Source: a bacterium (GTDB lineage: Bacteria; UBA8248; JACPRG01; G963555815). From it: a stretch of DNA of 64,000 bases. Positions 20,361-37,058 of this stretch are shown here, one piece after another (position 1 is the first letter of the stretch; every line of letters starts with the position of its first letter). The stretch spans positions 256,001-320,000 of the forward strand of contig CBDHDG010000005.1 of the NCBI GenBank assembly GCA_965261595.1, given 5' to 3'. Both the position numbers and the translations under genes were made by a program. The notes beneath the pieces were generated by a model. That model did no database searches. It was not told where the DNA came from and worked only from the letters and a program-made list of their open reading frames with translations.

Positions 20361-20460
20361 TCCCCTTCGGTCGAACGGGGGGGGCCGGCGGCGGCGAATT
20401 CCCCTTGCTCACCCTTGATTCCGCCTTTTTTTATCCAACCCGGTGGGCGGTCTTCCGGCG

Positions 20461-20720
20461 TGGGGGGAAATCCCCCCAGTGTGGGGTGTTTCCCCCCCAC
20501 GCACCTTCGATCCCTGTATTTAAAGGCGTTTTTGAGAATATCCCGCCTCCGGTCCGCCTTATCCCGGGGGGAAATCCCCCCACCCCCGGGTTCCATTTTC
20601 GCCGGGTCGGCGGGACTTCCACGCAAAAACGCGACCTTTTAATGGCTATCGAATCAGTGAGTTACCTGACTTTAAAGCTCCGAGATCCGTGGGATTCCGA
20701 CTTTGGCACACCTCTTGAGA
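20461..20720 (+). promoter_or_regulatory. Sigma54-like promoter with IHF site and upstream palindromic activator sites (copy 1)
   Basis: TGGCAC-N5-TTGA at 20704-20718 (non-canonical -12); AATCAGTGAGTTA at 20652-20664 fits WATCARNNNNTTR; three G-run/C-run palindromes at 20461-20582. Confidence 0.6.
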
Positions 20721-20807
20721 TATATAAGCGCGACTCCTCGGCATGGGGGGTCGAGGAAAACAACGGAACACCGACACTCAGTTACACGAAGTCGAGGAGA
20801 TAAGAAA

Positions 20808-21455
20808 ATGACTAGCGGAATCGGAGTCGCACCTATCGTAACGGGCGCCACGAAGATCAACCCCTCAAAGATGAGGGCCATGATCAAGAACCTCGAAGAG
20901 AAGAGGATGGAAGAGAAGGGGAAGAAGGCAAAAGGCGCGCCGCCCACCGATATGGTGAGCCTGAGCATGGAAGGAAAGGAAGCCGGGAAAAAGGGCAAAG
21001 CGAAAGCCGAGGCTACTCCTCATGAGAAGGGGCCCAAGGGTGTGAAAGGCCACCATGAGAAGGGGCCCAAGGGTGTAAAAGGCCACCATGAGAAGGGGCC
21101 CAAGGGTGTGAATGGCCACCGGAAGCGGATCACCGACGCCTATGAATTGATCAAGAAGCACGCGGCGGAAAATAAAAGCGAAGCTCCCAAGGCCGACTTG
21201 GCCTCGAACGTCTCCGCGAACATCAGTTTGAACGGGACGGCCACAGGGAAGGTCGAGGAGAAGACCCCGGCCGCGACAGAGACCTACACCCCCAAGGCCG
21301 CTCTTCCTGAGAACGACATCCTCAAAAGTTTGAACAACTTTGATAACTCTCTGAACCAGCTACTGAGCGGAAACAACGGCCTGGGCGCCGGCTCTCTGTT
21401 CAACAATCTGGATAACCTCGCGTCCAGTCTCGGCGCGCTGGGCAACATTTTCTAG
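20808..21455 (+). CDS. Hypothetical low-complexity protein A (FlgM-like D-x-V-x-L-S motif, His/Lys repeat)
   Basis: GAGGAG RBS then ATG 20808; TDMVSLSMEG; shares N-terminus and ADL..NVSAN motif with neighbouring paralogs. Confidence 0.7.
   Translation: MTSGIGVAPIVTGATKINPSKMRAMIKNLEEKRMEEKGKKAKGAPPTDMVSLSMEGKEAGKKGKAKAEATPHEKGPKGVKGHHEKGPKGVKGHHEKGPKGVNGHRKRITDAYELIKKHAAENKSEAPKADLASNVSANISLNGTATGKVEEKTPAATETYTPKAALPENDILKSLNNFDNSLNQLLSGNNGLGAGSLFNNLDNLASSLGALGNIF
21021..21119 (+). repeat. 3 x 33-bp coding tandem repeat (HEKGPKGVKGH)
   Basis: CATGAGAAGGGGCCCAAGGGTGTGAAAGGCCAC repeated three times with single substitutions. Confidence 0.95.
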
Positions 21456-21499
21456 AACCTCACGAATTCGGAAACCCCTCGGATAGAGGAGAAAAGACA

Positions 21500-22753
21500 A
21501 TGGAAATCGAACCCATCGAATCGAGCACCACGACCACGGAAATCTCGACGGTGGAGACCACGACCACGACCACGACCCTCGAAGAGACGGCGATAGTAGA
21601 GGAGACAGCCGAGGCCACCGATACGGTGACCCTGAGCGCGGAGGCATTGGAAGCCGCGGAAGCGAATGAGCCACTCTCGATCGAGGCGCTGGGCGAGAAG
21701 CTCTTAGCCGCCACGGGTCAGTTGCAGGCCCTCACCCAGGAATTGCAGGACCTGGGGGCGGACGAGACGGCCGTCGGAAACACGCTCAGCGAGGAAACTC
21801 AGGCGTTGAACGAAAAGGTGACGAAAACGAATGAGCAGGCAGTAACGGATTACCTATCGGGCAATATCAACGATGAGGAATACGTAACCATCCGTCTCCA
21901 ATCCGCCATCGAGCAGGTGGAGGGTATCAACTCCGTCCTGGGGAAAATTCGGGACGACCTGAAAGCGAGCGCTGAGGCGAGCGCCCCGGTCGAGATCGAA
22001 GCCCCCGAGGCCGACCTGACTGAGAATGTCTCCGCGAACATCAACGGAAACGGCGTGGCCAATGGGAAGGTCGAGGAGAAGGCCGAGGAGACGGGCGGGT
22101 ACTATTCCGCGAAGGCCGCGGCCCTTGCCAGGGCGGCCGAGGAAAAGGACAACGAGAAGTCTTTCGAGAAGGTGGAATCCAACGGCGTCGGTCCCGGGAA
22201 AGTGGGCCTCGGCATCCTCAAGAAGTTTGAGGACATCGAGGACTCTCTGGCCAAGCTGGTCGGCAAGAGAGGCCAGGGCAGCTTCGGCAACGGCGGCCAG
22301 GGCAACGGCTCATTGTTCGGTGCCCTGAATAAGTTCTCGGGCAACCTCGAACGCCTGGAAACCATTCTGGAAAAGGCCATGGAGGACAAGAAAAACGCTG
22401 AGAGCAGAGGTTTGAAGCTTAGTTTCACCGCCGAGGAGCTGCTCGAAAGAGCCCTGGGCGACGACCAGCGCAAAAAAGAGCTGGGCACCGTTATCCAACG
22501 AACCGGTTTCGGATATGGCGTGGCCGGGTTTGGCGGCGCCGCACCAGCGGGCGGGCCGGTGATCCATTCGCGGAACGAATCAGACGGTGAGCGTTCCGGG
22601 ATCCTGGCCGGCTCGGCCAGCGGCATCGGGATGGGCCAATTCACCGGGCGGGCGAATAAGGATGCGAACACCCCTTCGCTGATGAGCGCGTTCGGCGGGG
22701 TCCGCAACATCAGCGGCGCGGTGTCGCGCTCCAAGCTCAGCGTGGTGGCATAA
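21500..22753 (+). CDS. Hypothetical protein B (Thr/Glu-rich N-terminus, D-x-V-x-L-S motif, Gly-rich C-terminus ...SKLSVVA)
   Basis: GAGGAG RBS; 417-aa ORF; clear paralogy with 23785-25101. Confidence 0.75.
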   Translation: MEIEPIESSTTTTEISTVETTTTTTTLEETAIVEETAEATDTVTLSAEALEAAEANEPLSIEALGEKLLAATGQLQALTQELQDLGADETAVGNTLSEETQALNEKVTKTNEQAVTDYLSGNINDEEYVTIRLQSAIEQVEGINSVLGKIRDDLKASAEASAPVEIEAPEADLTENVSANINGNGVANGKVEEKAEETGGYYSAKAAALARAAEEKDNEKSFEKVESNGVGPGKVGLGILKKFEDIEDSLAKLVGKRGQGSFGNGGQGNGSLFGALNKFSGNLERLETILEKAMEDKKNAESRGLKLSFTAEELLERALGDDQRKKELGTVIQRTGFGYGVAGFGGAAPAGGPVIHSRNESDGERSGILAGSASGIGMGQFTGRANKDANTPSLMSAFGGVRNISGAVSRSKLSVVA

Positions 22754-22788
22754 CCCGGTTCACGAAAGGCTGACGGAGACAGCGCACC

Positions 22789-22926
22789 ATGGCGACAGTA
22801 TCCGACATCCTGGCCGCAACCTTCCAGCACCGGATGCGGCTCCAGGACCTGAAGGCCAAAGAGGCGGAAGGGGCCGCCGGGTGGTTCGAGAAGAATCGAA
22901 CCGCTCGGGCGGCCCGCCCGCTTTAA
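22789..22926 (+). pseudogene. Truncated remnant paralog of 25137-26099
   Basis: MATVSDILAATFQHRMRLQDLKAKEAEG vs MATVSDILAVNFQHRVRLQDLKVKEAEG; internal deletion shifts frame to TAA at 22924-22926. Confidence 0.8.
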
Positions 22927-22994
22927 AAAACCGGCCGCGGCGAGTATCCGCACCTTCAACGCCTCAAACCCTCCGATATCCATCCCTTCGCCAA

Positions 22995-23285
22995 CCGGCA
23001 TTTCTCACAAAGATAATCAGCCGGCCTTTTTTCACGCGGTCAACTCATCGTGGTTCAACCCGTTTCCGGAAACAAGGATTTTGAATGGGTGCGGACAGGG
23101 TGTTCCCCCGAGGGTTTGTCGGGGGCGGGTGCGGCGCCCCGCCCTTACCTTGGTGTGATCGTGAGGGCTTTGGCGTGTAGGGGCCGGGCGCGAGGCGGTT
23201 GACTCCCGCACCGGCCCCCTGTTGCCGGCGCATGAGCCGTGAGCGGGTGACACGGCCCCCACAGAATATTTGTGAGAAATTCAGC
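22995..23285. mobile_element. MITE-like element (same TIR family as 18976-19246) with internal REP variants
   Basis: CGGCATTTCTCACAAA / TTTGTGAGAAATTCAG ends (14/16 complementary); REP-like sequences at 23121-23148 and 23176-23220. Confidence 0.6.
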
Positions 23286-23439
23286 CTAAAGCTTAGGGTT
23301 TGCGACCCTTTCCGCGCTCCACCGCCTTCGCGGCTGGGTGAACCCGCTTTTGGACATCGGCTCCCCGCCGCCCCTTGAATCCCGCTTGATACCGCAGATT
23401 CCGCCTTTTTTCAGCCAACCCTCCGGGGGCCTTCGGGCA

Positions 23440-23697
23440 TGGGGGGAACCCCCCCCAGTGGGGGGTGTTTACCCCCACCCAAATCAACCCATTTAAAATC
23501 AAAGGGTTATTGAGAATATCCTGCTTTCGGCCCGATTTATATGGGGGGGATTCCCCCCACCCCCGAAGTCCATTTTGGGCGGGCCGGGGGGGCTTCCGCG
23601 CAAAAGCGAAATCTTTTAATCGTTGTTGAATCAGTATGTTACAGTTGTTTCAAGCCTCTCGATCCGGCCAATTCCGACTTTGGCACACCTCTTGAGA
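23440..23697 (+). promoter_or_regulatory. Sigma54-like promoter with IHF site(s) and upstream palindromes (copy 2)
   Basis: Identical TTCCGACTTTGGCACACCTCTTGAGATATATAA core (TGGCAC at 23681); AATCAGTATGTTA at 23629-23641; palindromes at 23440-23559. Confidence 0.6.
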
Positions 23698-23784
23698 TAT
23701 ATAACCGCGACTCCTCGACGTGGGGGGTCGAGGAAAACAACGGAAACCGACACTCAGTCAACCCAAAGTCGAGGAGAAAAGAAA

Positions 23785-25101
23785 GTGGCTAACGGAATCG
23801 GAGTCGCCCCCGTCGCATCGGACAGCACGGACAGAAACCTCTCGGTCATGCAGGCATCGAAACAGAACCTCGAAGAGAAGATGGTAGGAGAGAATCAGAA
23901 CAATGGAAACGGCTCGCAGGCCGCCGACAAGGTGGTTCTGAGCCCTGAAGCCAAAGCGGCATCGGCTTCCTCGCAGGCTGGGACGACTCCTGAAGTCACG
24001 CCCGCGGCCGATTCGGCCCCGGCGGCTGCTCCCCGGGACATGTAGGCGATCAAAAAAGACATAGACACCGTCGTTCATGAGCTGAAGAGCCTCAATGTCT
24101 CCGAAAAGGACGTGTCGAAGGCCCTGACAGAAGCCGCCGTCGACCTCAAGAAGAAAACGGCGAAATCCATCCAGAAGGCCGTCAGTGACCACAAGACGGG
24201 GATCACCAACGAGACGAAATTCGCCAAGGCGCTGGACAAGATCGCCGCCGATCAGGCGGAGGGCGTCCTCGACGCGCTCAAGGGCCTCCGGGACCAGGCC
24301 GCCAAGCCCGCCGATAACGCGGCGACGCCGACTGCCAAGCCCGAAGTCGAGACCCCCAAGGCCGACCTGGCTGAGAACGTCTCCGCGAACGTGAGCAAGG
24401 ACGGCTCGGCCAATGGGAAGGTCGATGAGAAGACCCCGGCCCAGCCGGCCGCCAAGGTCGCCGAGAAAATCGAGAAGGCCGAGGACAACGATGGTGGGCG
24501 GTTCGTCGGAACAGCCTCCGCCCCGGGACTTTCGGGCTCCAACGGGTCCAACGGGTTCAGCAGGCTCAGCGGGATCAGCGCCTTCGCCGACAAGCAGTTG
24601 GAGAAGATAACGGAGCGGCTGAGTTTTCTCCAGAATGCCGTTTCAGCGCTGAAGCTGGGCGTGAATTCCAAAGACTCCGGGGGCTCCGCGTTCGACGCCC
24701 TGAGAATGTTTACGAGTCAATTGGACCGGGCCGATCGCTCTGTCGCCCGGGCGGACCTTTCAGGTGCCACGTTGAAGATGGAAGACCTGGAAGGCGCCCT
24801 GGGTTCTCTGGTGAAGAAGGCCCGGGAAGATAAAGCCGTAACGCGCAGCAGCGGCACGTTCCTGCAAGGCGGATTCGGAGTCGGGTTCGGCAGCGGAGGC
24901 AGCGGCTCCGGCGGCCCGGCGGTCCATACGCGGGAAGATTCGGACAACGAGCGTTCCGGGTTCATGGTCGGCTCGGCCGGCGGCATCGGCATGGGCCAAT
25001 TCACCGGGCGGGCGAAGCAGGATTCGCTCCTGACCTCGTTCGGCGGCATCCACAGCATCGGCGGCGCGGTGTCGGGCTCCAAGCTCAGCGTGGTGGCGTA
25101 A
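23785..25101 (+). CDS. Hypothetical protein C (A-like N-terminus + B-like body) interrupted by in-frame TAG at 24043-24045
   Basis: GAGGAG RBS, GTG 23785; ADKVVLSPEA motif. Frame continues past the TAG into the 24112 ORF with homology to protein B. Confidence 0.7.
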
Positions 25102-25136
25102 CCCGGTTCACGAAAGGCTGATGGAGACGTAGGACC

Positions 25137-26099
25137 ATGGCAACGGTATCGGACATCCTGGCCGTGAACTTTCAGCACCGGGTGCGGCTCCAGGACCTGA
25201 AGGTCAAAGAGGCGGAAGGCGCCGGCTCGGCGAAGAAGGCCGAGTCGGCGGGCCGCCGGGCGGTTCGAGAAGACTCGATCCGCTCGGGCGGCCAGCCCGC
25301 TTCCAAGGCCTTCGTCGTCTCCCTCAGCGACGCGGCCCGCGACATTGCCGGAAAGACAACCAAGCGCCCGGCGGATTCCAAGGACGACGCCCCCCGAAAA
25401 GCGGGGACGGCCGCCGGGGGACCGAAGAGGGCCACCCGGACCGGGGGTCCGCAAGGCGCGGCCCCGGGGCATGAAGCCCGGGAGCTTCACGCCCTGTCCG
25501 CCGGCCTGGAGGAGCTGGGCGGCGGAATCGACGCCGTCCGGGCCATCATTCGGCGCGCGGCGAAGAAGGCGGAAACGCCCGAGAGACAACACCTTGAGCT
25601 GGATGTCGAGGCATTGCGGGCCGGCGAGACGGACGGCCGGACCGTCCTGGACCGCCACTATGCGGCGTCCTTCAGACAGAGCAAGACCTTCATATCGAGC
25701 CTGCGGGTGATTCGCTCGCGCCTGAAGGAGCGCTCGGCCGACGTGACGGGGACGGCCCCGGCCGGCGGGACGCCCGAAAGCCGGACACCGGACGCCCGGC
25801 GCGCGGCGGCGGCGAAAGCGTACGCTGAGGCCCCGCGAACCGGTGCCTCAGAGGTGGTGGCGAGATCCGTTCAGAGCCTCGACGGGTATCAGCGGGCTTT
25901 CGGCCGGGTCATCCATTCCGACGGGGACGTCTTCGAGGACCTGAGCCGGCTCGGCGGGAAGCTCGAAGACCTGGCGGAAACGCGCTCGGACTATCTGTCG
26001 GCGAAACGGACGGAGCGGGCCGAGGCCGCGCGCGCCAAACCCTCAGCCGTCCAATCGCCCCTCGCCGCGGGTCTCATCAGAGAGTTCGCCGCCGGGTAG
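25137..26099 (+). CDS. Hypothetical protein D (Ala/Arg-rich, FVVSLSDAA motif)
   Basis: 320-aa ORF; its N-terminus is duplicated at 22789. Confidence 0.65.
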   Translation: MATVSDILAVNFQHRVRLQDLKVKEAEGAGSAKKAESAGRRAVREDSIRSGGQPASKAFVVSLSDAARDIAGKTTKRPADSKDDAPRKAGTAAGGPKRATRTGGPQGAAPGHEARELHALSAGLEELGGGIDAVRAIIRRAAKKAETPERQHLELDVEALRAGETDGRTVLDRHYAASFRQSKTFISSLRVIRSRLKERSADVTGTAPAGGTPESRTPDARRAAAAKAYAEAPRTGASEVVARSVQSLDGYQRAFGRVIHSDGDVFEDLSRLGGKLEDLAETRSDYLSAKRTERAEAARAKPSAVQSPLAAGLIREFAAG

Positions 26100-26274
26100 G
26101 GCCGGACTCGCCCACCAGACAGGATTTCTCAGCAAGATGATGGTTTCCCGCATCGCCCTGCTCCCGCGGTCTTTTTCTTCGATGGTGAGAATTTCGCTGA
26201 ACAAAAAAACCTCCCCTTCCGGTCGAAAGGCCCGGAAGAGGAGGTTTCGCGCGAAGAAAGAGATTTTCGCCGAT

Positions 26275-28627: not shown

Positions 28628-29803
28628 CTACTTTTTCCAGAACATCAGCCGGTCGAGCCAGGTCTTCTTCTGGACGGCCTCCGCCGCCAGCAGGGGCGTG
28701 GAGGCCAGGACCCGGCCCCGGACGATCACCTCAATCTTCCCCACCTCCCGCCCCTTCCGGACCGGGGCCGAGATGGGGTTCCTCTTCAGGGTGATTCGGG
28801 TCTTGACTTTGGGGACGTGGATCCGCTTGACAAGAACCGAGATGGGCTTGGCCGCGACGATGGTTATGGTTTTTTTCTTCCCCTGAGCCACGGCGACGGG
28901 TTTGCCGATCGGCCTCCCGTCGGTGAAGAAGGAGACCTTTTTGTAAACGCGGAATCCCCGCGTCAGGAGTTTCCTGGTTTCCCGCACCCGGCCTTTCTGC
29001 GTGGGGGCCCCCAGGACCACCGAGATCAGCCGGAATCCGCTCCGCGTCGCGGTCGTGCAAAGGTTGAACCTCGCCTTTTTGTAGTAGCCCGTTTTGATTC
29101 CGTCCATTCCGGGGAAGCGGCGCAGGAGCTTGTTCGTGTTGTAGAGCTTGAATTTTCCGTTGCGGAAGGTGTCCTCCACCGTGGCCCCCCACTTGAGGAG
29201 GAGCGGGTGGCGGACGATTTGCCGGGCAATGATCGAGATGTCCCGGGCCGAGGTGTAGTCCTGGGGCTGGCCGGGGGCCGGCGGAAGGCCGTGGACGTTG
29301 GTGTACACCGTCCGGGTCAGTCCAAGATCGCGGGCGCGCTCGTTCATCAACTGGACCATCGCCTCGGGGGCGCCGGCGATGTGCTCGGCGATGGCGTAGG
29401 CGGCGTCGTTAGCCGAGGCGATGACGACCGCTTTGAGCAGCTCGCCCAGCGTGAAGACCTCCCCCTCCTTCAGGTAGACCTGCGATCCCCCGATGCGGCT
29501 GGCGGCCCGCGAGATGTGCACCTTCTGGTCAAGCGAGAAGGCGCCCTCTTTGACCGATTCCACCACGATGAGCATGAGCATCATCTTGACGAGGGAGGCG
29601 GGTATGAGCTTTCTGTCCGCCTGATCCTCGATGAGAACCTGGCCCGTCCCGGCTTCGATGAGGAGGGCGGCCCGGTAGCGCGGCGGTTTGTCCGCTTTGG
29701 GCTTGGCCCGCTTCGCGGCGGAGACCGGGAGCGCGGAAAGGCAGAACGCAAGGGCAATGAACGCGGCGATGGATCGGATGCATGGGGAGTGTCTGAATCG
29801 CAT
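28628..29803 (-). CDS. dacA: D-alanyl-D-alanine carboxypeptidase (peptidase S11, PBP5/6-like)
   Basis: PASLVK (SxxK), SANDA (SxN), GIKTG, C-terminal PBP5 domain, signal peptide. Confidence 0.9.
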   Translation of the reverse strand: MRFRHSPCIRSIAAFIALAFCLSALPVSAAKRAKPKADKPPRYRAALLIEAGTGQVLIEDQADRKLIPASLVKMMLMLIVVESVKEGAFSLDQKVHISRAASRIGGSQVYLKEGEVFTLGELLKAVVIASANDAAYAIAEHIAGAPEAMVQLMNERARDLGLTRTVYTNVHGLPPAPGQPQDYTSARDISIIARQIVRHPLLLKWGATVEDTFRNGKFKLYNTNKLLRRFPGMDGIKTGYYKKARFNLCTTATRSGFRLISVVLGAPTQKGRVRETRKLLTRGFRVYKKVSFFTDGRPIGKPVAVAQGKKKTITIVAAKPISVLVKRIHVPKVKTRITLKRNPISAPVRKGREVGKIEVIVRGRVLASTPLLAAEAVQKKTWLDRLMFWKK

Positions 29804-30013
29804 AGGGAATCTCTCGGATTGGGACCGCCCGGCGGGAGAGGCCTGCCCGTGCACCTCGCCCCGAATCTAGACCGGTCGGGGACGGGTGTCAAGATGCGGG
29901 AGGCGTCCAAGGTTTTGAAAATAGAGATTGCCGGGTTTGCGGACGACATGAAAGCGCCGCGCGGACTTCCGTGAGCGCTTGCGTTCCAGCGCGGAGTCCG
30001 GCGAATCCCATGA

Positions 30014-30029
30014 TGCAAGCAGGGTGCCA
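30014..30029 (-). promoter_or_regulatory. Canonical sigma54 -24/-12 promoter upstream of dacA-like gene
   Basis: TGGCAC-CCTGC-TTGCA on the minus strand, about 210 bp upstream of the start. Confidence 0.6.
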
Positions 30030-30152
30030 TTCGCCGCTCCTTGACACCCCCCGGCGGGGCGGTGGAAAATGGAACGTTTGGGCCTGTATTTTCTATGCCC
30101 GGGCAGGTGAATTTCGTTTCCCGGTCTTGAAATGTTCGGTGCGGAGGGCCGC

Positions 30153-33104
30153 ATGCTCGACACCATCTCCATCCGGGGGGCGCGCGAGCACAACCTCAAG
30201 GGGATCGACCTCGACCTCCCCCGGGGGAAGTTCATCGTGATCACCGGCCTCAGCGGGTCGGGGAAATCCTCCCTCGCCTTCGATACGCTTTACGCCGAGG
30301 GCCACCGCCGCTACGTCGAGTCCATGTCCACCTACGCCCGCCAGTTCCTCGAGCGGGTGGACAAGCCCGACGTGGACTACATCGAGGGCGTCTCCCCGGC
30401 CATCGCCATCGAGCAGCGCAACCCCGTCAAGCACTCCCGATCCACCGTCGGAACGGCGACGGAGGTCTACGATTATCTCCGCCTCCTTTTTGCCAAGGTC
30501 GGCGAGACCGTGTGCCCCGCCTGCGCGGCGCCGGTCCGTCCCGATACGGTCGAGGGCGCGGTGGACCGGCTGCTGTCCGGCCGCGCGGGCGACCGCGCTT
30601 ATGTGACCTTCCCGGTCGAGACGGCCCCGGCGGACCCGCCCAAGAAGGGAAGGGGGGGGAAGGGAAAGAAGGGCCCGGGAAAAGACGGCCGGAAGGAGCG
30701 CCTGTCGAACCTCCTCGATCATCTCCTCGCCCGGGGCTTCCTGCGGGTCTGGATCGGCGAGGAGCTGTTCAACCTGTCCGAGAAGGAGGAAATGGCCGAG
30801 GCGGCGAGTACGGAGTCGGACGACATTCAGGCCGTCGTGGACCGGCTGCGGCTCGGGAAGAATGTCCGCTCCCGCCTGGACGATTCACTCGAGATCGCCT
30901 TCCGTGAAGGAGGCGGCAAGGCCGAGGCCCGGATCGCCGATGGCCCGCGTCTTCCCTTTTCCCGGGGGTTTGTCTGCTCCTCGTGCGGGAGGGGGTTCGA
31001 GCCGCCGACGCCGCTGTTCTTCTCCTTCAACAATCCCCAAGGGGCCTGTTCGGAATGCGGCGGCTTCGGCAACAAGCTGGACCTGGACCTGGACCTCGCC
31101 ATCCCGAACCGGACGAAGACCCTCGCCGGGGGGGCCGTGGATCCCTGGACCCGCCCCCGGCACAAAAGCCATTTTCAGGAAGAGATCCGAAAGCTGTCCC
31201 GCACAGAGGGCGTGGACCTGAATGTCCCGTTTGAGTCTCTCCCCAAAAAACATCAGCGGATGGTCATCGAAGGGACGAAGGCGTTTCAGGGCGTCCGGCC
31301 CTTTTTCGAGCGGCTCAACCGGAAGAAGTACAAGATCTGGGTGCGGATGTTCCTGCGGCGGTACCTGGGGACGTTTCCTTGCCCCCGGTGCCGGGGGGCG
31401 CGCCTGCGCGAGGACGCCCTGTACGTGCAAATCGACGGCCGGAACATATCCGAGGTCTCGGCGCTATCGGTCCGCGACCTGAGGGGCTTCCTGGACGCGA
31501 TCGACTTTTCCCCCGGACAGGCCGACGTGGCCGGGGATATCCTGGCTCAGCTCCGGTCGCGGCTGGACTTCCTCGCGCACGTCGGCGTGGATTACCTCAC
31601 CCTCGGCCGCTTGACCCGGACGCTGTCGGGCGGAGAGGCCCAGCGCATCAACCTGGCCAACCAGCTGGGGGCGCAGCTCGCCGGGACCCTCTATATCCTC
31701 GATGAGCCTACGGTCGGACTGCACCCGAGCGACAACGCGAAGCTCCTGCAGATCCTCAAGGGGCTGACCGGCGCGGGAAACACGGTGGTGATCGTCGAAC
31801 ACGACCGGGACGTCATCCGGGAGGCGGATTTCCTGGTGGACCTCGGTCCCGGGGCCGGGGAGCGGGGCGGGGAGGTGGTGTTCGCCGGGCCCGCGGGGGA
31901 TATCCTCTCGTGCGAAGATTCGGTCACGGCGTCTTACCTCCGGGGAGAGCGGAAGATCCCCCTGCCCGAGCGGAGGCGGCCGGTGGGCGATCCGCCGGCC
32001 GTGAAGACCCGGCGCGGGAAACCCGCTCGGCCCGGCGAGATCCCGTTCGCGATCGCGGCCGAACCCGGGACGGTCTTCCTCTCCCTTCTGGGGGCCTGTG
32101 AGAACAACCTGAAGAATGTTGATTTCCACCTCCCCCTCGGGACGTTCACGTGCGTGACGGGGGTCTCCGGATCGGGAAAGAGCACCCTGGTGCACGATAC
32201 GCTTTATCAGGCCCTCCACCGGGTCTTCCACGGCGGCTCGACGCCGATGGGCCGGTTCCGGGAGGTCCGGGGGGTGGAGGCGCTCGGAGGGATCGTCCTG
32301 TTGGATCAGGCCCCCATCGGCCGCACCCCGAGGTCGAACCCGGTGACCTACATCAAGGCCTACGACGCCATCCGGCGGCTCTTTGCCGAGACCCCCGCCG
32401 CCCGCCTCCTGCGCTACGGCCCCGGGCATTTCTCCTTCAACGTCGCCGGCGGGCGGTGCGAGCGGTGCAAGGGAGACGGCCACGAGAAGATCGAGATGCA
32501 CTTCATGGCCGACCTGTTCGTGCGCTGCCCGGAGTGCGAGGGGAAGCGGTTCCGGCCCTCGACGCTGGAGGTGAAGCGCCGGGGCAAGAACATCCACGAC
32601 GTTCTCTCCCTGACGGTGGACGGCGCCTTGCGGTTTTTCGCCGGCGAGCCGTCCCTGGTGCGGCGGCTGGAGGCCCTCTCCCGCGTGGGGTTGGGATACA
32701 TCCGTCTGGGACAGCCGGCGACGACCCTCTCGGGCGGAGAGGCGCAGCGGTTGAAGATCGCCGTCCATCTCTCCGGGAAAGACCCGTCGCGCATGCTCTA
32801 CATCCTGGATGAGCCGACGACGGGCCTTCATTTTCACGACGTGGAGGTCCTGTTGCGCGCCTTGCACCGGCTGGTGGCTCTCGGCAACACGGTCCTCGTC
32901 ATCGAGCACAACCTGGATGTGGTCAAGACGGCCGATCACATCGTGGACCTGGGTCCCGGCGGGGGCGACGCGGGCGGGCGGATCGTCGCGCGGGGGACGC
33001 CCGAAGAAATCGCCGATTGTCCCGAGTCCCTCACGGGCCGATACCTCCGCCCGCTCCTCGAAGTCCGCCCGCGCGATGAGGCCGTGATGGGGTCAGGGGT
33101 TTAG
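30153..33104 (+). CDS. uvrA: Excinuclease ABC subunit A
   Basis: GAREHNLK, two Walker A motifs (GLSGSGKS, GVSGSGKS), two LSGGEAQR signatures, CxxC zinc fingers. Confidence 0.96.
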   Translation: MLDTISIRGAREHNLKGIDLDLPRGKFIVITGLSGSGKSSLAFDTLYAEGHRRYVESMSTYARQFLERVDKPDVDYIEGVSPAIAIEQRNPVKHSRSTVGTATEVYDYLRLLFAKVGETVCPACAAPVRPDTVEGAVDRLLSGRAGDRAYVTFPVETAPADPPKKGRGGKGKKGPGKDGRKERLSNLLDHLLARGFLRVWIGEELFNLSEKEEMAEAASTESDDIQAVVDRLRLGKNVRSRLDDSLEIAFREGGGKAEARIADGPRLPFSRGFVCSSCGRGFEPPTPLFFSFNNPQGACSECGGFGNKLDLDLDLAIPNRTKTLAGGAVDPWTRPRHKSHFQEEIRKLSRTEGVDLNVPFESLPKKHQRMVIEGTKAFQGVRPFFERLNRKKYKIWVRMFLRRYLGTFPCPRCRGARLREDALYVQIDGRNISEVSALSVRDLRGFLDAIDFSPGQADVAGDILAQLRSRLDFLAHVGVDYLTLGRLTRTLSGGEAQRINLANQLGAQLAGTLYILDEPTVGLHPSDNAKLLQILKGLTGAGNTVVIVEHDRDVIREADFLVDLGPGAGERGGEVVFAGPAGDILSCEDSVTASYLRGERKIPLPERRRPVGDPPAVKTRRGKPARPGEIPFAIAAEPGTVFLSLLGACENNLKNVDFHLPLGTFTCVTGVSGSGKSTLVHDTLYQALHRVFHGGSTPMGRFREVRGVEALGGIVLLDQAPIGRTPRSNPVTYIKAYDAIRRLFAETPAARLLRYGPGHFSFNVAGGRCERCKGDGHEKIEMHFMADLFVRCPECEGKRFRPSTLEVKRRGKNIHDVLSLTVDGALRFFAGEPSLVRRLEALSRVGLGYIRLGQPATTLSGGEAQRLKIAVHLSGKDPSRMLYILDEPTTGLHFHDVEVLLRALHRLVALGNTVLVIEHNLDVVKTADHIVDLGPGGGDAGGRIVARGTPEEIADCPESLTGRYLRPLLEVRPRDEAVMGSGV

Positions 33105-34847: not shown

Positions 34848-35752
34848 TCATGCGGCCTCCGCAACTTGAGCGAGTTTTTCCTGCCTTGCCTGGGCCGGCG
34901 TTCGGTAGCCGTAGCCCTCGAGAATCCAATGATGGTTGTACAGGTTCTTGAACTCAAGCAGCGCCCACCGCAGTTCCTCTACGGTGGCGAAAGAGCGCAC
35001 CCACAGGAGATTCTCCTTCAAGATGCGGATAAACCACTCACAGTAGCCATTTCCCTCGGGCGCCCGCACGAAGCTGGGCGAACTGGTCATGCCCAGGTAG
35101 GCGATCTCCCGCTGAAAGTCATCGGACAGATAGGCGGGGCCGTGGTCGTGACGAACTTTAAGCCCCTCGGCGACGTCCGCCTCCAAGCCGGCGAAGCGCT
35201 CGGCGACCCCCTGCCGGATCGGCTCCAGGGCCTCGAAGCGGTTGCCGCTCTTGGCCGCATGGATCCCCACGCAGTCCACCGAGCAGTGATCCACCGCCAC
35301 GAACACCGAGGCCACCCCCTCCTCGGTGGTCACCGTCGTCGTCATGTCCGTGCCCCACATTCGGTCGGGCCGCTCGGTGCGGATGGTCCCGTTGTGGGCC
35401 TTGGGACCTCGGGGTTTGCCCACCCGGTGGGGGGCCTGAAGCCCCGCCTCCCGCATCAGGCGACGCATCCGCTCCTTGCTGGTGCGGATGCCCGCGAAGC
35501 GCAGCCTCGCCCACACCTTGCGGTAGCCCTCGCCATGGAAGGGAGAGTCCTCCAGGACCTGCCGGATGTGGCCGAGGAGTTCCGCATCGGTGCACGGGCC
35601 CACAGGGCCGCGCTTATTGGGCGTGGGGCGTTCATGAACGGGGACCGCCTCTCGCCGCCGTTGCGCGTAGACCGTGGAGCGCGCCAAGCCCCAAAGGGCG
35701 CACACCCGCTTCAGGCCGTAGGCTCTGCCCGTGGAGGTGAAGCGGGCCTGAC

Positions 35753-35765
<13 letters not shown>
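34848..35765 (-). CDS. IS3-family transposase OrfB (DDE integrase core)
   Basis: GYRKVWARL, WGTDMT, RHDHG, PEGNGYCE motifs. Confidence 0.9.

Positions 35766-37058
<1,293 letters not shown>

Follow-up and report, generated by a model that had tools for sequence, protein, structure and literature searches.

Organization of the locus

We analysed a bacterial DNA stretch of 64,000 nucleotides (the window; contig CBDHDG010000005.1, positions 256,001 to 320,000, or G000:C5:256001-320000) from assembly GCA_965261595.1, here G000 (6.17 Mb in 7 contigs, 96.7% complete). Both the repeat finder and the listing of open reading frames (ORFs) reveal two tandem cassettes on the plus strand, at approximately 20400-22926 and 23380-26099. 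Each of them opens with about 430 bp of conserved control DNA, followed by genes of one paralogous family, and the whole is a lineage-specific, fast-evolving cluster of low-complexity paralogues behind a sigma-54-type promoter. The genes and their features are as follows.

20808..21455, plus strand: gene A, 215 aa, pI 9.7; has the N-terminus of the family, a single ADL..NVSAN motif and the second helical motif
21021..21120, plus strand: 33-bp tandem repeat in gene A (HEKGPKGVKGH, three units); the unit number varies, and P0011 has two units
21500..22753, plus strand: gene B, 417 aa, pI 4.5; begins Thr-rich, then has xVxLSxEA, the three-helix module, an ADL motif, the second helical module and the Gly-rich tail
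22789..22926, plus strand: D-type gene stump of 45 codons after B; 71% identity to residues 1-35 of D
23785..25101, plus strand: gene C, 438 codons, GTG start; full-length family architecture, interrupted in this assembly by a TAG
24043..24045, plus strand: in-frame TAG in C; CAG (Gln) in other strains
25137..26099, plus strand: gene D, 320 aa, pI 10, rich in Ala and Arg; a divergent paralogue, collinear with the others, that lacks the Gly-rich tail

By codon-position G+C content, genes A, B and D and the long 3' part of C look coding. Both B (GAGGAG, 8 nt before the ATG) and D (GGAG) have ribosome sites of their own, and hence A-B and C-D look like two-gene units with one control region each.

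The repeat finder pairs the upstream and N-terminal DNA of the two cassettes in three blocks (71, 203 and 190 nt, 72-81%), with the copies 2977-2979 bp apart.

20427-20497 and 23406-23476: repeat block 1, 76%
20566-20768 and 23543-23745: repeat block 2, 81%
20784-20973 and 23761-23950: repeat block 3, 72%

A second common block (22550-22923 and 24910-25302, 84-92%, spacing 2348-2379 bp) runs from the C-terminal tail through the intergenic DNA into the start of D. Thus, the duplication of upstream and N-terminal DNA described in the first-pass annotation stands, whereas its length of approximately 480 bp has to be corrected to the measured value of about 550 bp.

No hydrophobic signal or membrane segment was found in A-D, the highest 19-residue Kyte-Doolittle mean being below 1.0, which agrees with the earlier statement that none of the four ORFs has a Sec signal. 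The four xVxLSxxA motifs, the Gly-rich tail and the E.P.ADL..NVSAN..G.A.GKV motif, all noticed at the same time, are likewise present in the translations, the last one in three DNA copies at 71-72% according to the repeat finder. Cys is absent from all nine proteins tested and Trp from seven of them (P0019 and P0022 have two Trp residues each); A-D lack both. The proteins are rich in Ala, Glu, Lys and Ser, with 7-12% Gly where listed. The idea that the NVSAN motif represents an N-X-S/T sequon was set aside, as such sequons exceed their expected number only slightly (in two examples, 7 for 3.1 expected and 9 for 3.9).

One paralogous family with a modular architecture

Alignments A1 and A2 bring A, B and C together with members from the databases, and D joins them in alignment A6. 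The full-length members are C, P0007 (600 aa), and P0010 and P0037 (436-437 aa). Their common order is the N-terminus M-A-N-G-I-G/A-V-A-P-I; the xVxLSxEA motif; a three-helix module; the E.PKADL.ENVSAN..G.A.GKVE motif in one to three copies (P0010 and P0037 have lost it); a stretch of low complexity; another helical module, around GSxFxxL; and a Gly-rich tail with the end GSKLSVVA. The best-kept ends of the long forms are this N-terminus and the C-terminus GSKLSV[VM][AV]. Gene A retains the N-terminus, xVxLSxEA, the ADL motif and the second helical part, and has neither the three-helix module nor the Gly-rich tail, while B is without the family N-terminus. Judging by the order of parts, C is the ancestral architecture, and A and B are its cut-down derivatives, since P0007, P0010 and P0037 share the order of C and A and B retain only some of the parts. 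This replaces the earlier view of C as the N-terminus of A joined to the body of B.

The relation of D to the family is seen both in a profile comparison (hhalign probability 91.2%, E 1e-6, D residues 114-282) and in the joint alignment A6, where its N-terminus, the FVVSLSDAA motif and a degenerate TPDARRAAA all line up with the family. Thus, by alignment, A, B, C, D and the D-type stump are one paralogous family, with D as a divergent member.

In the AlphaFold2 model of C built with alignment A2 (mean pLDDT 54.5), residues 86-173 form a confident three-helix module (block means 82-93), and residues 262-355 form a second helical region. The remainder, the conserved tail included, is below 50; in total 240 of the 438 residues fall below this value and are predicted to be disordered. 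The model of D built with A6 (mean pLDDT 59.3) contains the same two modules, at 112-203 and 237-299. Neither model has a match in the Protein Data Bank (PDB) at E <= 0.001 in a Foldseek search, and VIA-align wide with C yielded a best Z of 5.8, all matches being generic helical bundles below what such bundles reach by chance.

The control region

We aligned five copies of the control region from three species: the two in the window, a third one on another contig of the same genome (C7:1077859-1078122), one from G001, a genome of the same genus, and one from the metagenome contig L083. The mean column identity is 80%. All five have in common a pair of G6-N4-C6 palindromes (GGGGGGAAATCCCCCC type) at a distance of about 104 bp, the word TTGGCACACCTCTTGAGATATATAA, and the first 15-20 nt of the leader. 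In the window these elements are placed as follows.

20462..20477, plus strand: cassette 1, distal palindrome GGGGGGAAATCCCCCC, candidate enhancer site; an exact palindrome in a column block kept in 5 of 5 copies
20566..20581, plus strand: cassette 1, proximal palindrome, 104 bp from the distal one (genome word search, alignment)
20703..20727, plus strand: cassette 1, sigma-54-type element TTGGCACACCTCTTGAGATATATAA, TGGCAC-N5-TTGA, invariant in 5 of 5 aligned copies
20728..20807, plus strand: cassette 1, leader of 80 nt, in which CUCCUCGGC can pair with the proximal GUCGAGGA or with the Shine-Dalgarno word GUCGAGGAG
23441..23456, plus strand: cassette 2, distal palindrome GGGGGGAACCCCCCCC (genome word search, alignment)
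23543..23558, plus strand: cassette 2, proximal palindrome GGGGGGGATTCCCCCC (genome word search, alignment)
23680..23704, plus strand: cassette 2, sigma-54-type element, the identical 25-mer (genome word search)
23705..23784, plus strand: cassette 2, leader (alignment, folding)

The exact GGGGGGAAATCCCCCC palindrome occurs genome-wide in cassette 1 only. A genome-wide search with the 25-mer, allowing up to four mismatches, yields three matches, all of them identical and all at the cassettes. The element lies approximately 90 nt before the start codon, and the palindromes are approximately 135 and 240 bp upstream of it, that is, within the range usual for activator sites (about 100-250 bp), which makes them putative sites of this kind. 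No sigma-70-like site fits at the promoter position. The genome encodes RpoN (Sigma54_DBD, 208 bits) and has nine Sigma54_activat matches, of which five reach E 5e-46 or better. To our knowledge, the G6-N4-C6 palindrome is unlike any activator site. Cassette 2 also contains in its control region the word AATCAAAGGGTTA, which we take to be IHF-like.

Between species, the control DNA is 80% identical and the promoter with the leader 89%, against 74% for the C coding sequence.

Two further observations concern sigma-54 in this genome. A word matching the full consensus (TGGCACCCTGCTTGCA, 30014-30029, minus strand) lies about 160 bp upstream of a D-Ala-D-Ala carboxypeptidase gene (28628-29854, minus strand). 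One sigma-54 activator gene (G000:C2:232486-232987, minus strand) matches the AAA+ profile as two adjoining segments (1-119 and 117-167) whose frames differ, possibly due to a frameshift or an assembly error.

The leader has a 5' hairpin and a strong ribosome site. Near its 5' end, the word CUCCUCGAC has two alternative partners, the proximal GUCGAGGA and the Shine-Dalgarno word GUCGAGGAG. Beyond the first 15-20 nt, the leader is kept up to the start codon in the four copies without an insertion sequence (IS) interruption. In the minimum-energy folds, both window copies show the Shine-Dalgarno pairing (z -1.6 and -2.9) and the other two show the proximal hairpin; the L083 leader has one mismatch in the stem, which is not compensated. 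According to these folds, the leader may be an RNA switch in which an anti-Shine-Dalgarno word swaps partners, which we offer as a lead only. Two leader words bear GGA, and CsrA was considered as their reader and rejected, as the genome has no CsrA.

Distribution of the family and history of the locus

The family is rare. A word-indexed search returned five proteins for B and four for D, and an exhaustive profile search returned 19 representatives among 1.84 billion at E <= 0.001, several of them fragments. The A2 profile added one protein, named 'hypothetical protein [Nitrospinota bacterium]'. No names are given in the ten clusters looked up, and named matches elsewhere are only 'hypothetical protein'. 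A profile scan of the genome contigs with A1 produced 67 pattern matches, none of which was confirmed, and a metagenome scan with alignment A3 led to two loci. The stretch itself is present in 20 runs of 7 studies, at 73-99% of the sampled words; no RNA run is listed for it.

After the same neighbours (TauE, M20 peptidase, YnfA and the HD/OB protein), the metagenome locus L083 has a single control region with a single C-type gene (437 aa) and a single D gene, while L082 has a frame-broken C-type gene and D. Thus, C and D are adjacent in all three loci with a C-type gene, that is, in the window, L083 and L082. In G001 and in G003, which belongs to another genus, the HD/OB gene directly precedes the Zn-ribbon ORF, Rrf2, and the methyltransferase and carboxypeptidase genes, and the cassette is missing; hence the cassette appears to be an insertion in some species. 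From the comparison of these loci, the A-B-stump cassette is a further tandem copy.

The third control region lies between tuf/tRNA genes and a NagZ-like gene (L012 7860-9400 = G000:C7:1077859-1079400). Its leader is cut by an IS3-type element (orfA/orfB, minus strand, L012 8152-9326), and no family gene follows. The syntenic copy in G001, likewise situated between tuf/tRNA and NagZ-like genes, is truncated (177 aa).

The cassette edges carry related words (window positions 20400-20425, 22983-23010 and 26124-26148), which read CTCACCCTTGATTCCGCC at the left edge and ATTTCTCA[CG].AAGAT.AT at the right edge. In G001, the site that lacks a cassette (the L094 gap) is TTTCTCACAAAGCTGATGGTTTC, present twice and flanking a 330-bp insert. 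These related words may be the junctions of an insertion or a deletion.

Strain variation and selection

The tandem arrangement is spanned by contigs of four runs, which belong to four studies. Position 24043, the first letter of the TAG in C, is C (CAG, Gln) in runs X5, X6 and X9 and T only in X1, the run closest to the assembly (depth 2.8); the sister-strain protein P0008 also has Gln at this position. Three of the four runs skip one 33-bp unit of the repeat in A, and single runs have 6-nt and 9-nt deletions in B and C, so that all between-strain indels (33, 6 and 9 nt) are in frame. Of 14 coding differences between strains, 10 alter the protein. The earlier suggestion of a set that is co-regulated, here by a common control region, and that diversifies by duplication and shuffling is supported, the other processes being module loss and change in repeat number.

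The dN/dS ratios between the window and L083 (Nei-Gojobori) are listed below.

C: 0.98 (dS 0.34)
D: 0.66 (0.60 against L082)
HD/OB gene (flanking): 0.18
M20 gene (flanking): 0.20

The separate modules of C vary from 0.79 to 1.66. In a simulation of neutral evolution (2000 replicates per rate), C-like frames stayed open in 1.6% of cases at half the observed divergence and in none at the full one. D has no gaps over 320 codons. As the ratio is close to one while the frames are open and the control DNA is kept, selection seems to act far more on having the protein and on its timing than on its residues.

Searches for known families and for export machinery

Searches of Pfam, NCBIfam, PHROGs and PADLOC gave no match above cut-off for the family proteins. 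The best match below it is to Apolipoprotein (E 1.6e-4, 22 bits against a cut-off of 90), and apolipoprotein-type amphipathic repeats are seen, also below cut-off, in 2 of 15 members (P0007 and P0019). A PADLOC match to Cas11b (E 0.0027) is confined to the low-complexity part of P0007. Against PDB sequences, the best match of profile A2 is a designed coiled coil (E 5e-4), and profile A5 has none. Thus, the family, which is absent from the profile and fold libraries and is 'hypothetical' or nameless in all sources searched, is indeed unrecognised, as initially supposed.

The first-pass annotation had also proposed a FlgM-like resemblance and export by a flagellar or type III route. The FlgM profiles (Pfam PF04316 and NCBIfam) do not match A, B, either part of C or D in hmmscan at E <= 1, FlgM is absent from the 25 families listed for 15 members, and neither FlgM nor flagellin profiles match P0019, P0023, P0022, P0017 or P0007 at E <= 10. 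The likeness is hence confined to a short motif and lacks profile support. As for the export machinery, FHIPEP (FlhA/SctV), FliP and Flagellin_N have no matches in G000, whereas the same profiles are positive in 4 of 14 control genomes. FHIPEP is found in 9 of 51 genomes of the phylum, in none of the seven of this family-level group, and in neither G000 nor G001, which are the only 2 of the 51 genomes with the protein family. The annotation had named in advance a lack of flagellar genes in the genomes carrying the family as an outcome speaking against it, and in the genomes examined the two sets are disjoint. Since the export gate is absent from the genomes with the family, the flagellar or type III explanation fails for them.

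For the type I route, RTX nonapeptide repeats were found in none of eight proteins, and the best type-I HlyD match (TIGR01843) in the genome reaches 57 bits against a cut-off of 208.65.

Other features of the window

The spacer between the cassettes and the DNA following them contain two more elements.

23037..23290, no strand assigned: dispersed repeat element in the spacer between the cassettes; blastn gives 21 further matches elsewhere in the genome
26207..26247, no strand assigned: GC-rich, terminator-like hairpin between D and the convergent Zn-ribbon ORF

The contig depth rises 5-8 fold over the dispersed repeat (23074-23264) in three runs. The repeat is about 100-250 bp long, and one of its genomic matches, on C7, is 7 kb away from the third cassette. 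In the 64-kb window, scans for Rfam families and for tRNAs gave no matches.

Further along the window there is an IS3-type transposase pair (HTH_Tnp_1, then HTH_21/rve; 34848-36166, minus strand). A UvrA-like gene (30132-33104, 990 aa) has 73-95% identity only to a few uncultured metagenome-assembled genomes, one of them labelled Nitrospinota, and approximately 34-52% to all other matches; from these identities it may be a divergent UvrA paralogue. The word TGGCACTTCTATTG occurs within 13 kb of six contig ends (C3:812, C4:6717, C5:8048, C5:1107211, C6:1812262 and C7:1370492), so that the assembly is probably broken at these ends by a repeated element, for instance an rRNA operon or an IS.

Proposed function and alternative explanations

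Our tentative proposal, which falls short of an even chance of being right, is that the family consists of sigma-54-controlled, inducible, largely disordered helical-bundle proteins with a protective or scaffold role inside the cell, and not of flagellar or type III substrates. Sigma-54 RNA polymerase and one dedicated enhancer-binding activator, encoded elsewhere in the genome, would switch on the cassettes; bound at the two palindromes, this activator would turn on three cassettes and, apparently, nothing else. With such control, the genes would be inducible rather than constitutive. The products would stay in the cell as abundant, sequence-tolerant protectants or scaffolds, by analogy with hydrophilins or with PspA under PspF. 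The long form C would probably act together with the basic short paralogue D, always encoded directly downstream of it, via the common helical modules. Selection would hold the frames and the control DNA and let the residues drift, while copies would be readily gained, cut down and lost. The intracellular location is suggested because no export signal or machine was found, the composition is hydrophilin-like, amphipathic repeats are present, and the control logic resembles that of psp.

The psp system of Escherichia coli (PspA under PspF and sigma-54) is similar in its sigma-54-type promoter, two upstream candidate activator sites and soluble helical proteins without a signal peptide. Hydrophilins are defined by a Gly content above 6% and a hydrophilicity index above 1. 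The family resembles them, and also proteins of the late embryogenesis abundant (LEA) group, in being rich in Gly, Ala, Ser, Thr and charged residues, in being mostly disordered in the models, in the 11-residue repeats of A and the amphipathic repeats of P0007 and P0019, and in the scarcity of two residues described above: hydrophilins, according to PMC3691520, lack Cys and Trp.

A number of observations weigh against this proposal. The sigma-54 consensus is TGGCAC-N5-TTGC, with the -24 GG and the -12 GC ten bases apart and the -12 GC near-universal, whereas TGGCAC-N5-TTGA has nine of the ten core letters, with an A in place of the C at -12. TGGCAC-N5-TTG is not enriched in the genome either (27 occurrences against 44.8 expected from base composition), so that the case for sigma-54 rests on the invariance of the element, its place approximately 90 nt before the start codon, the paired palindromes, and a chance of about 0.002, derived from the same expectation, of meeting this word in a given 430-bp stretch. 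None of the nine activator genes lies near either locus, in contrast to psp. Similarly, PspA/IM30 (PF04012) has no match at E <= 1 for A-D, nor is it among the families listed for the 15 members, and no LEA family is found among the listed Pfam matches. The proteins are less hydrophilic than classical hydrophilins (GRAVY from -0.19 to -0.72), and differ from hydrophilins and LEA proteins also by a pair of helical modules with confidently predicted folds and by short motifs that are sharply conserved. In a language-model search, Cj0814 and SipD come at ranks 5 and 6 for B, where they belong to the best named clusters, and at ranks 1-3 for C residues 80-360, where they are the best named ones; their scores of 0.80-0.85 (0.80-0.87 overall) are at chance level, as shuffled proteins reach them a third of the time. 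The strongly conserved extreme termini (MANGIGVAP and SKLSVVA) find an easier explanation as signals for recognition or export, and a dN/dS close to one combined with copy turnover is also a signature of surface or secreted proteins engaged in an arms race.

The last points lead to the main alternative, which we regard as only slightly less likely than our proposal: the proteins would be exported or displayed at the surface by a route with neither a Sec/Tat signal nor a type III machine, with the conserved termini as the signal and fast evolution driven by a host, competitors or phages. It would account for the ratio near one in all modules of C with the frame kept open, for the excess of protein-altering strain differences (10 of 14), for the best-kept N- and C-termini of the long forms, for the lack of Cys in the nine tested proteins and of Trp in seven, and for the gain, truncation, IS disruption and repeat-number change of copies; for the termini, the near-neutral or diversifying substitutions and the copy turnover, it is a better explanation than an intracellular role. 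The chance-level language-model leads also point to secreted helical proteins, although scores at that level count equally against this use of them. However, searches of the genome yielded no FHIPEP, no FliP and no type-I HlyD above cut-off, and the neighbours at both loci are housekeeping genes. The likeness to type I (RTX) substrates is limited to the lack of an N-terminal signal and of Cys, the Gly-rich C-terminal region and the conserved hydrophobic C-terminal end; GGxGxDxUx repeats are absent from the eight proteins, and there are no transporter genes nearby.

If, on the other hand, the genes were decaying leftovers, for example of a regulon lost together with the flagellum, with little or no present function, one would understand the dN/dS of 0.98 and the TAG in C, the IS3-type element in the third cassette, the truncated G001 copy of 177 aa, the frame-broken fragments P0013, P0016 and P0020, the absence of the whole locus from G001 and G003, and the presence of FlhA elsewhere in the phylum (9 of 51 genomes). 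We consider this improbable, as the frames are longer than neutrality allows (1.6% open at half divergence, 0% at the full one), all strain indels are in frame, the control region is kept better than the coding sequence, D has a ratio of 0.6 with no gaps over its 320 codons, and the TAG is absent from three of the four runs.

It is hardly credible that the family consists of FlgM-like proteins or of other flagellar or type III export substrates. What recalls them is the V-x-L-S-x-x-A motif, similar to that of FlgM, in largely disordered proteins without a signal peptide; the start MLAINTNQ of the distant member P0019, reminiscent of the flagellin N-terminus; and the leads to Cj0814 (PF28266, a flagellar-dependent secreted family) and to the SipD needle-tip protein, which rest on likeness of B and C at chance level in a genome without a flagellum. 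FlgM has about 100 aa, while the family members have 215-438 aa; their promoter is sigma-54-like and not sigma-28-like; and to this are added the absence of profile matches, both for A-D and for the five database members, the lack of the export gate and flagellin in a 96.7% complete genome and of FHIPEP in all seven genomes of the family-level group, and the absence of the protein family from the nine FHIPEP-positive genomes. A bolder combination, which we see as a long shot, is that the family comprises substrates of an unrecognised route independent of Sec and type III, with MANGIGVAP and/or SKLSVVA as the signal, that it derives from flagellar-type secreted helical proteins and was kept after the loss of the flagellum, and that it spreads in and among genomes as a compact mobile unit of enhancer, sigma-54 promoter, leader switch and gene at TTTCTCAC-type sites next to housekeeping or tRNA genes.

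Biological meaning

The family, nameless in the sources searched, is an example of genes whose frame and control DNA are selected while the residues change almost freely, and of a complete enhancer-promoter-leader-gene unit that has been copied as one piece. The sigma-54 regulon in question seemingly consists of three promoters only. The FlgM-like motif alone is no evidence of flagellar biology. Export of the proteins would be a pointer to an undescribed route in an uncultured lineage without a flagellum; an intracellular protective role, our tentative proposal, would extend the bacterial hydrophilins by a type that is both folded and disordered.

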